A DNA stretch of 24,319 nucleotides from the IMG/VR virus record IMGVR_UViG_2923302340_000011, positions 1 to 24,319 of that record; one strand, 5' to 3'. Shown in pieces: positions 1 through 3,000 of this stretch. The stretch is from a virus (lineage: Duplodnaviria > Heunggongvirae > Uroviricota > Caudoviricetes). Within the stretch, counting starts at the first letter, position 1; every line of letters starts with the position of its first letter. The position numbers were made by a program.

Positions 1-3000
1 AAGAAATAGGGCTTCCACCTGGGAAGCCCTTTCTTTTTATAGTTCGGCTGTATGTAGGGTACAGCACGATGAATCTGTTAGAGGCGCAATAGTGACAGAT
101 TTGATTATCAATTCCTATTTTGTTCTAAGGATAAAACCTTAGGTTGTGATCATCCGCACAATCCCTTAGTAACGCCAGCGGTCATAACGCTGATATTTAG
201 GCACTTTTGGTGCTTTAATCGCCTTAATAACCCACACCACCGCAATCGCCAGTAGTAACCACGGCAGCAACTTAATCATCAATGCCAGCATACCGCCGAG
301 GAACATAATGGCCGTCGCCACAACCAGCGCAGCGATAATACCCAGCAACGAAACGCCGGTGACCATCAGCATGACAAAAAAGCCAATCACAAAAAGTAGT
401 TCCAGCATGATGCTCTCCCAAATATGAAATCTCTTGCTGGCATTACAAGAATCATGCCAAAAATAATCTATTGATTTAACAGCAAAACGCCCCGCGACGG
501 TGCGCAGGGCGTGGTGAATTTGACTACTTTTTGGTGAAAAGTTAACGCTTATCTGCCACCAGTTTGAGCGCGTGTTCCAGCACGTTAATGTCAGCACCAG
601 CTTTATGGGCATTTTCACTTAAATAACGCCGCCACTGCCGCGCGCCAGGAATACCCTGGAACAAGCCCAGCATATGCCGGGTAATATGGCCAAGATACGT
701 CCCCTGGCTGAGTTCACGCTCAATGTACGGATACATGGCGCGCACTACCGCCACCGGATCGGCATCGGTATCCGAGGAACCAAAGATCTCTCGGTCTACC
801 GCCGCCAGAATACCCGGATTCTGATACGCTTCGCGCCCGACCATCACGCCATCCATATGTTGCAAATGCGCTTTTGCCTCTTCCAGCGACTTGATGCCAC
901 CGTTAATCGACATTGTCAGATGCGGAAAGTCACGCTTCAGTTGATACACACGCGGATAATCGAGCGGCGGGATTTCACGGTTTTCTTTCGGGCTTAACCC
1001 CGAAAGCCAGGCTTTACGTGCGTGGATGATGAACATCTCACACTCGCCTTTGCCGGAAACGGTGTTGATGAAATCGCAGAGAAATTCATAGCTGTCCTGG
1101 TCGTCGATGCCAATACGCGTTTTCACCGTCACCGGAATCGACACCACATCGCGCATCGCTTTCACGCAGTCGGCAACCAGCTGCGCATTACCCATCAGAC
1201 ACGCCCCAAACATGCCGTTCTGCACCCGGTCAGACGGGCAGCCGACATTCAGGTTGATCTCATCATATCCGCGCGCTTCTGCCAGCTTTGCACACTGCGC
1301 CAGCGCCGCCGGATCGCTACCGCCCAGTTGCAATGCTACCGGATGTTCTTCTTCACTGTACGCCAGGTAATCACCTTTACCGTGAATAATCGCCCCTGTA
1401 GTCACCATTTCGGTATACAGCAACGTATTGCGGGAAAGCAGACGCAAGAAATAGCGGCAATGTCTGTCCGTCCAGTCGAGCATAGGAGCAATGCTAAACC
1501 GAGAATTCCAGTAAACACCAGTTTTTTCAGGCATCACGCTGGTTTGATTAATTTTTTGTGTTTCATGATTATCGTGCATTTTTGAACATTTCAGGCTGTT
1601 TTTCTCGCGTTAGGTTCCCGCACAGGTTCCCACGTTTTATGGGAACCCGAAATAACGAGGTCGTGTAATGGCGTACTATAACATAGAGAAGCGACTAAAA
1701 TCCGATGGCACACCACGCTATCGCTGTAATGTGATTATCAAAGAAAAAGGTGTTATCACTTACAGGGAAAGCAAAACATTCCCTAAACATGCTCATGCCA
1801 AAACATGGGGAACACAGAAAGTGATGGAATTAGATCTATATGGCATTCCATCATCAAATGCAGTTGACGGACTTACAGTCCGTGACTTACTACACAAATA
1901 TTTAAATGACCCAAATGCCGGAGGTAAAGCAGGCCGTACTAAAAGATATGTGCTGGAACTGCTTATGGATAGTGACATCTCCGCGATCAAACTATCTGAA
2001 CTGACAGAAAATGACGTAATTGAACATTGCAGGCTAAGAAACAACGCTGGTGCAGGTCCAGCAACAGTCAGCCACGATGTTAGTTATCTTGGCAGTGTTC
2101 TGGATGCGGCCAAACCTGTATACGGAATTAATTACACATCAAACCCGGCGAAAAGCGCTCGCCCATATCTACTTAAACTTGGTTTGATTGGTAAATCAAA
2201 CCGTCGTAATCGTAGACCAGCATCTGATGAACTGGACATGCTCATTGAAGGCCTTCAACAACGATCTACTCATAAATGCTCAAAAATTCCGTTCGTTGAT
2301 ATCCTCAAATTTTCTGTGTGGTCCTGTATGCGGATCGGAGAAGTATGCCGGTTACGATGGGAAGATCTCGACCAGGAACAAAAATCTATACTCGTAAGAG
2401 ACAGGAAAGATCCACGCAAAAAGGAAGGCAACCACATGAAAGTAGCCTTGCTTGGGGAAGCCTGGGATATCGTCCAACGACAGCCCAAAAAATCGGAATT
2501 CATTTTTCCATATAACAGCACTTCTGTTACTGCAGGATTTCAGAGGGTAAGAAGCAAATTAGGTATTAAAGATCTGCGATACCATGATTTGCGTAGAGAA
2601 GGGGCAAGTCGCTTATTTGAGGCTGGTTTTAGTATTGAGGAAGTCGCTCAGGTTACAGGGCATCGTTCATTAAACGTGCTATGGCAGGTATATACCGAAC
2701 TGTATCCGAAATCTTTACATAATCGTTTTGAAGAGCTCCAAAGGAGCAGAAATAAGACCTCTTGACACTGTTTATCCATACAGTTGAAAATAACACTGTA
2801 TACAAACACAGTATAGAGGGGCTTTTATGCGTATTGAGATCTGCATAGCCAAAGAAAAAATGACTAAAATGCCAAACGGTGCTGTGGATGCGTTAAAGGA
2901 AGAATTAACCCGACGCATCAGTAAACGTTATGACGATGTAGAGGTGATCGTAAAAGCCACCAGCAACGATGGCCTTTCTGTTACGCGCACCGCCGATAAA

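Follow-up and report, generated by a model that had tools for sequence, protein, structure and literature searches.

The stretch of DNA analysed here (called the window throughout) comprises 24,319 nt, positions 1 to 24,319 of the Caudoviricetes record IMGVR_UViG_2923302340_000011 in IMG/VR. Near one end it carries the gene dusA (542..1579, minus strand), a 345-aa open reading frame (ORF) with a full Pfam Dus domain (E = 7.8e-105), beside int (1668..2765, plus strand), which encodes a dusA-specific tyrosine integrase of 365 aa (Pfam PF00589 Phage_integrase, E = 1.1e-20). We found that positions 1476..1483, inside the coding region of dusA, are almost certainly the int-proximal junction of a lambdoid prophage of the mEp460/1720a-02 type, which was integrated into the 5′ end of dusA by site-specific recombination through a tyrosine recombinase. 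Judged from sequence comparisons, the strand exchange is placed within an 8-bp core, TCGAGCAT, everything from 1484 rightwards is phage DNA, and the dusA gene of the window is a host/phage chimera in which the prophage starts 96 bases inside the gene. An earlier interpretation of the same DNA (the sequence-only reading) had proposed a prophage junction at 1450..1667, with int starting 88 bp from the dusA start codon and transcribed away from it. The start codons are indeed exactly 88 bp apart and the genes divergent, and the proposed span covers the core, the phage-supplied dusA codons (1484..1579) and the 88-bp spacer between the two genes (1580..1667).

Location of the crossover

The crossover was located by a four-way comparison of attachment (att) sites, in which the window served as attL, Escherichia coli K-12 MG1655 as attB, the far prophage end in ETEC4077 as attR and the phages mEp460 and Lys8385Vzw as attP. 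The int-proximal junction is named attL here, as in the sequence-only reading and by Balasubramanian et al., and attR is the name of the dusA-side junction in Durand et al. The aligned sites read ...GTCCGTCCAG-TCGAGCAT-TGGTGCAACGC... in attB, ...GGTACATCCTA-TCGAGCAT-AGGAGCAATGC... in attP, ...GTCCGTCCAG-TCGAGCAT-AGGAGCAATGC... in attL and ...GGTACATCCTA-TCGAGCAT-TGGTGCAACGC... in attR. The core at 1476..1483 is the only block identical in all four; the window follows K-12 to the left of 1476 and the phage to the right of 1483, and attP consists of the attR phage arm, the core and the attL phage arm. In the sense direction of dusA the 8 bp read ATGCTCGA and belong to codons M33-L34-D35 of the conserved motif A-P-M-L-D-W. 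The crossover thus lies in the N-terminal coding region, where the sequence-only reading had expected it. In the attP of mEp460, a 7-bp sequence, TCGAGCA, can be read directly between the inverted pentamers TCCTA and TAGGA. Farrugia et al. (2015; PMC4482086) describe an attachment sequence of 21 bp that is semi-conserved, is located in a conserved part of dusA and occurs as imperfect direct repeats at both ends of the islands. Partial similarity is present on both sides of the 8-bp core. In the circular record of Lys8385Vzw (MT225100) the core TCGAGCAT stands twice in tandem at attP (∼3793..3808), which looks like prophage ends joined with the core counted twice and not like a real duplication.

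The two parts of dusA differ in origin. The first 96 nt deviate from K-12 at 18 positions (18.8%), compared to 18 of 942 positions (1.9%) in nt 97–1038 (Fisher p = 1.2e-10). The same codons 1–32 (1484..1579, minus strand) differ from Lys8385Vzw at 2/96 nt and from mEp460 at 7/96 nt, i.e. they match free phages at 89–94 of 96 positions, as the sequence-only reading had suspected when it called the first dusA codons phage-derived. The reading frame is kept in this phage-supplied part, and 9 of the 32 amino acids are changed with respect to the native sequence MHGNSEMQKINQTSAMPEKTDVHWSGRFSVAP. Codon 36 to the stop codon (542..1475, minus strand) constitute the host-derived part. As an independent check we inspected the full-length phage-genome matches to 1400..2900 of the window: all ten begin at 1474–1479, where the phage similarity ends towards the host part. 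In the free phages mEp460, Lys8385Vzw, 1720a-02 and others, int and the 184 bp between the core and its start form one contiguous stretch (96–98% identity over the 184 bp). Within this segment the 88-bp spacer hardly differs from mEp460 and Lys8385Vzw; it cannot be aligned to the DNA upstream of dusA in K-12, with 66 of 88 positions mismatched in an ungapped comparison.

A search for the displaced dusA 5′ fragment at the other prophage end, as proposed in the sequence-only reading, was successful in ETEC4077, which is 99.8% identical to the first 3 kb of the window. At its far prophage end the other phage arm is followed by TCGAGCAT, and this in turn by a native dusA 5′ fragment that matches K-12 at all 96 nt; this stub is annotated in ETEC4077 as a truncated tRNA-dihydrouridine synthase pseudogene. 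The opposite outcome, a dusA 5′ sequence identical to that of a prophage-free strain, was not observed, K-12 being different at 18/96 nt.

The integrase and recurrence of the junction

Int is 100% and 98.6% identical to the integrases of phages Lys8385Vzw and mEp460, respectively. Two alignments, with 15 and with 41 relatives, show no variation at the catalytic residues R222, H306, R309, H332 and Y342. More distant phage matches are annotated as shufflon-type (Rci) recombinases, in agreement with the nearest relative reported for the family, and the mEp460 record notes an INT_Rci domain on its integrase. With NCBIfam, only far-sub-threshold Xer and integron-integrase matches were obtained for Int; there was no dedicated model for the dusA-associated integrases (DAI). 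The DAI were defined by Farrugia et al., who list mEp460 among six bacteriophage-genome hits of a BLASTP search with the D1279779 DAI and Escherichia among the genera over-represented for DAI. They further report that dusA islands put sequence of their own in place of the dusA 5′ end, that the displaced 5′ end is joined to the gene again when an island excises, that experiments on islands of Acinetobacter and Pseudomonas showed excision with restoration of dusA, and that 64% of dusA islands have a prtN homologue. Catalytic residues, homology, adjacency to dusA and the replacement 5′ end all fit: Int belongs to the DAI family, with which the sequence-only reading had linked it.

The closest precedent is phage 1720a-02 (KF030445), whose module from core to dinI is 97.4% identical to the window at the nucleotide level. 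According to Balasubramanian et al. (2019; PMC6328086), this phage integrates 100 bp into dusA, a 7-base core is common to its attL, attR and attB, it encodes an in-frame phage dusA′, and the formation of attP requires int. The 21-bp DAI motif is stated to be present at the 1720a-02 junctions.

The 3-kb junction was found in 733 of 5426 complete E. coli genomes (at least 80% coverage). We also scanned one genome per species with an Int alignment and obtained 80 loci with integrases of 53–99% identity, 75 of which had enough upstream DNA to be assessed. In 55 of the 75 assessable loci from other species, dusA is located directly upstream of the Int relative and divergent from it, although the compared loci are phylogenetically related and the locus counts overstate their independence. 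The start codons are ∼85–100 bp apart in the Enterobacterales loci. Because the junction recurs in these E. coli genomes and loci of relatives, the dusA/int arrangement is not due to chance. The remaining 20/75 Int relatives are not beside dusA, which agrees with the 83% dusA association given in PMC4482086.

Relatives away from dusA (L032 and L037–L043 in Xenorhabdus, L063 and L066 in Raoultella, L072 in Buttiauxella, L033 and L034 in Serratia) keep the tandem pair of candidate arm-type sites described below, with CAGCACCCC repeated. Many of these also keep an element-borne dusA′ start (ATGCACGAAAAT, M-H-E-N) ∼88 nt upstream of int with no dusA following; in L032 this vestige reads M-H-E-N-Q-Q-K-stop. 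A DEAD-box helicase ORF adjoins L032 and L038. These elements look like retargeted descendants of dusA-specific elements with a vestigial dusA′ start.

Position of the integration module

In mEp460 the order of genes is side tail fibre (rightward), dinI and int (leftward), the attP core, two rightward ORFs, and a prtN-like gene and exo (leftward). The prophage of ETEC4077 has the same module layout. The PrtN-like gene across attP is gene 025 in mEp460, with a pfam11112 note, and lies at 33427..33708 of the ETEC4077 locus (L001). Since int is on the tail-fibre side and the directionality factor across attP, integration puts them at opposite prophage ends: one end has int beside dusA, and the other has the early-left operon and the directionality factor. 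The lambda-type organization, with int next to xis on the pL side and transcribed towards attP, was not found. The statement of the sequence-only reading that the module is not in the lambda-like position therefore stands in substance, int being on the tail-fibre side and reading away, and needs one refinement: int adjoins attP, as it does in lambda. When it described the prophage as a mosaic in which lambda late genes are combined with a different integration module, it characterized an mEp460-type lambdoid phage fairly. The noncanonical orientation, with int adjacent to attL, was already remarked for 1720a-02 (PMC6328086).

Candidate arm-type sites upstream of int

The spacer contains a cluster of short repeats. 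Two direct copies of AGGTTCCC, 12 bp apart, are located at 1612..1619 and 1624..1631 on the plus strand (candidate arm-type Int sites 1 and 2), and an inverted copy, GGGTTCCC on the minus strand, is located at 1641..1648 (candidate site 3); all three were assigned from the repeat pattern. The heptamer GGTTCCC accordingly occurs at 1613–1619 and 1625–1631 in direct and at 1641–1647 in inverted orientation, so that three of the four copies in the 24-kb window fall within 36 bp (P ∼3e-4 for clustering by chance, a rough scan estimate). In the attP of mEp460 two further GGTTCCC copies, GGTTCCCAATAGGCTCCCA, are found 42–63 bp on the other side of the core.

We surveyed the 90 nt upstream of int in 53 dusA-associated loci, with shuffled sequence and other 90-nt windows of the same loci as controls. 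A tandem 8-mer pair with a spacing of 10–13 bp (mostly 11–12) was present in 45/53 loci, compared to 6% of shuffled sequences and 12% of other windows; it mostly lies 20–55 nt upstream of the int start. The pair is followed by an inverted third copy in 26 of the 53 loci (0.05% in shuffled sequence, 0.4% in other windows). The layout is constant and the motif varies by lineage: GGTTCCC, GCACCCC, GTACACC, GGACACC, GGATCCC, GGTATCC, GTACCCC and others were observed. Int sequences group by motif in their N-terminal 60 residues, a correlation confounded by phylogeny. A two-arm layout with their own motifs was also seen in a Klebsiella phage and a Vibrio tectivirus-like element. Nine loci of marine Gammaproteobacteria (L059, L061, L062, L068, L070, L073, L077, L080 and L085) carry a second repeat with a period of ∼10 bp, e.g. 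TGAATTAC or GAATTTCGTTG in 2–4 copies, 60–110 nt upstream of int between the dusA′ start and the arm-type pair. This second repeat is absent from the Enterobacterales loci; it may form an array to which an additional factor binds, for instance a regulator or the directionality factor.

An AlphaFold2 model of Int (mean predicted local distance difference test score, pLDDT, 83.6) displays three domains: an N-terminal unit, a helical core-binding domain and a catalytic domain. The predicted N-terminal unit (residues 2–58; pLDDT ∼90) has a beta-beta-beta-alpha fold with strands at 2–10, 16–26 and 29–38 and a helix at 41–58. With Foldseek, the model aligns over 358–375 columns to the full-length lambda Int chains 1z1g, 1z1b and 5j0n. 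On the basis of repeat patterns and predicted fold, the GGTTCCC repeats are probably arm-type Int sites, and a heterobivalent mechanism of the lambda type, with such sites on both arms, is suggested.

It is unlikely, although the proposal has points in its favor, that the repeats at 1612..1648 are instead operators for another protein (RdfN/PrtN-like, a repressor, IHF or Fis) or form a hairpin in the RNA or DNA of the int leader. Sites 2 and 3 are inverted repeats of 8 bp, 9 nt apart, and could fold into a hairpin, the repeats sit where the int and dusA promoters should be, and the assignment as arm sites has its basis in sequence and model. However, copies flank the core on either side at distances like those in lambda, the motif shifts with the N-terminal sequence of Int between lineages at constant position and spacing, many marine lineages have the tandem pair without the hairpin partner, and the N-terminal domain of Int is predicted to be of the arm-binding type. 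An intrinsic terminator at the inverted repeat 1625..1647 was considered and rejected, as no T-run follows the hairpin and the terminator scan was empty there.

If the repeats are arm-type sites, they could have a second role. We tentatively consider that the sites at 1612..1648 serve both as the int-proximal attP arm and as an operator in the divergent promoter region, through which Int would autoregulate int and modulate the phage-supplied dusA promoter, thereby coupling DusA expression in lysogens to the integration module; the constant layout with a lineage-specific motif would then be a sign that the N-terminal domain of Int and the arm sites have co-evolved. The regulatory part of this proposal is speculation. 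If true, the co-evolution could be used to predict specificity across the DAI family. Arm-type sites are not mentioned in the consulted sections of the Results of Farrugia et al. (PMC4482086), nor did a term search of Durand et al. (2021; PMC8409611) return them. A full-text literature search for such sites in dusA elements gave a paper on the classification of genomic islands and a review of integrative and conjugative elements, neither of which names dusA or arm-type sites in its title or abstract. The conserved, co-varying array of arm sites upstream of int may be the sole new point of this analysis, and it is a modest mechanistic detail.

A model for integration and its weighing

As the sequence comparisons show, the phage carries an in-frame copy of dusA codons 1–32 together with the DNA upstream. 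Integration thus rebuilds a full-length dusA of 345 aa with 9 altered N-terminal residues, and the native 5′ end remains at the far end of the prophage as a stub. According to the model we favor, and judging by what has been published on close relatives, Int would be expected to catalyse both integration and excision, and the phage DNA to supply a new dusA promoter. Excision would need a PrtN-like directionality factor (RdfN), presumably encoded across attP and beyond the window. Int itself would be heterobivalent and lambda-Int-like, its N-terminal beta-beta-beta-alpha domain binding the GGTTCCC arm-type repeats and its core-binding and catalytic domains acting at the 7-bp overlap region flanked by TCCTA and TAGGA. 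In the Vibrio element IMEVchUSA3 Durand et al. show that dusA is given both a new promoter and a new N-terminus and that Pint is constitutive, and identify the PrtN-like RdfN, encoded across attP from int, as the directionality factor. By analogy, both a replacement promoter for dusA and a promoter or leader for int would have to lie in the spacer 1580..1667. Position 1602, within the spacer and ∼23 nt upstream of the dusA start codon, is G in the window and A in mEp460, Lys8385Vzw and Escherichia sp. (L007); in the relatives the surrounding stretch is TATACT- or TAGCCT-like on the dusA strand and a possible −10 element.

Several points weigh against this model. The far junction of the window's own prophage lies beyond the window, which ends in head genes, and was taken from ETEC4077; the latter, the closest complete-genome match, carries a decayed prophage with several pseudogenes. 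The directionality-factor gene likewise falls beyond the window, and to these points the relatedness of the compared loci is to be added. A simple sigma-70/terminator scan of 1300..3200 gave no consensus promoter in the 88-bp spacer, where weak −10-like hexamers were all that could be seen by eye; because of this result, expression of dusA from phage DNA is something we can only infer. Arm binding by Int rests on a predicted fold and repeat patterns, and Pfam returned no arm-binding family for the N-terminal half of Int, but a sub-threshold Int_N match (E = 0.034, residues 72–165).

The junction might also be a fossil, the fixed scar of a defective prophage whose int and att sites no longer function. 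In the prophage of ETEC4077, tape measure, terminase and tail fibre are truncated and other pseudogenes are present, and we found no complete E. coli genome that covers at least 80% of the window in one place. Moreover, about half of the dusA islands were classed as non-prophage genomic islands or phage remnants in PMC4482086. In the window, however, Int is full-length with all catalytic residues and 100% identical to the integrase of a deposited phage, Lys8385Vzw; the ORFs for J, tape measure, major tail and protease are full-length; and the core and arm repeats are intact. We regard a fossil as rather improbable.

That the 5′ divergence of dusA is allelic variation or a recombination patch, with int a neighbour by accident and the att site elsewhere, for example in a tRNA, found no support and is conceivable only since the far prophage end is beyond the window; it can practically be discounted, as the core-to-int DNA is contiguous in free phages, attP consists of both phage arms and the core, the phage-genome matches start at the core, ETEC4077 keeps the native stub at its far end, and the one tRNA annotated there (tRNA-Gly) lies inside the prophage, away from both junctions.

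Neighbouring features of the window

On the host side, pspG is located downstream of dusA, as in E. coli K-12. The first prophage gene past int is dinI-like (2827..3075, plus strand; Pfam DinI, PHROG 189) and has the same position in mEp460 and Lys8385Vzw. Between the int stop and its start we noticed LexA-box-like CTGT-N8-ACAG sites at 2768..2783 and 2796..2811; both overlap or directly follow a promoter-like TTGACA-N18-GAAAAT (2762..2791). In the whole window the CTGT-N8-ACAG pattern was observed 3 times, compared to 0.27 expected. From these motifs, the dinI-like gene is probably SOS-regulated.

The rest of the prophage (3193..24319, minus strand) consists of lambda-like late genes, identified by PHROG matches and the annotations of matching genomes, in the order side tail fibre, J, tail assembly, minor tail, tape measure, major tail and head protease/scaffold. 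Mosaicism in the window concerns its tail-fibre and late region; that no complete E. coli genome covers at least 80% of the window in one place shows how rampant it is. The side tail fibre protein (792 aa; 4486..6864, minus strand) carries a long imperfect run of SETNAK/SQTAAKT-type repeats at residues ∼120–350, and its C-terminal part is unlike the fibre of the closest genomes. Rfam gave no match in the window at the gathering threshold.

Implications

Publications already cover the family and its target, as well as the replacement 5′ end, the directionality factor and the unusual position of the module, and every part of the sequence-only reading is both correct and already in the literature. 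The main practical value lies in the exact boundary at 1476..1483 and in the recognition of dusA codons 1–32 and, by analogy with relatives, probably of the dusA promoter as phage DNA. In annotations the prophage boundary belongs inside dusA, not at the start of the gene. As the junction is present in about one in seven complete E. coli genomes and lies inside dusA, pipelines that place the boundary in the int–dusA spacer misassign 96 coding bases and the dusA promoter. The junction is also a textbook case in which a mobile element inserts at a conserved coding motif and makes good the damage by bringing a gene start of its own.

Comparison with known systems

The nearest systems are mEp460 (JQ182728) and 1720a-02, also known as Phi-stx2dact (KF030445). 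Their core-to-dinI module is 97.4–98% identical to the window at the nucleotide level, with the same gene order (tail fibres, dinI, int, phage dusA′, core) and the same target ∼100 bp into dusA. The module differs from the window by point differences only, such as the G for A at 1602, whereas the late region of the window is mosaic relative to both phages. 1720a-02 carries stx2d; no stx gene was seen in the window.

The features of lambda Int and attP used for comparison are established knowledge. Int of the window resembles lambda Int in its predicted three-domain heterobivalent architecture, and its attP resembles that of lambda in the repeated candidate arm-type motifs on both sides of a 7–8 bp overlap, the inverted core sites and the presumed need for a small directionality factor. 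Sequence identity between the two integrases is, however, ∼17%. The attB of lambda is intergenic, whereas the dusA element targets a protein-coding gene and replaces its 5′ end. In further contrast to lambda, int is not overlapped by xis, a PrtN-type protein encoded across attP would act as directionality factor, and integration separates int from the pL operon.

The dusA islands share with the element an RHRH/Y tyrosine recombinase at the dusA 5′ end, a replacement 5′ end and, probably, imperfect direct repeats and a prtN homologue; no essential difference was apparent. IMEVchUSA3 (PMC8409611) is a mobilizable island under the activator AcaCD of IncC plasmids, not a lambdoid phage, and its integrase is only distantly related. 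The SXT ICE (integrative and conjugative element), as cited by Durand et al., integrates in the prfC 5′ end and likewise replaces the promoter and N-terminus of its target, but is a conjugative element with an unrelated integrase and target. An integrase of the present family, at 55% identity, is also found in Vibrio phage 10N.286.54.C7_PE001 (L006) and related PE records. This 14.6-kb tailless element (Vinavirales, with a PM2-like capsid) shows the same ...CCAATCGAGCAT core at each end of its record, together with a dusA 5′ mimic of its own, ...RLSVAPMLDWT. The dusA module is shared by this element, and therefore serves very different types of viruses.

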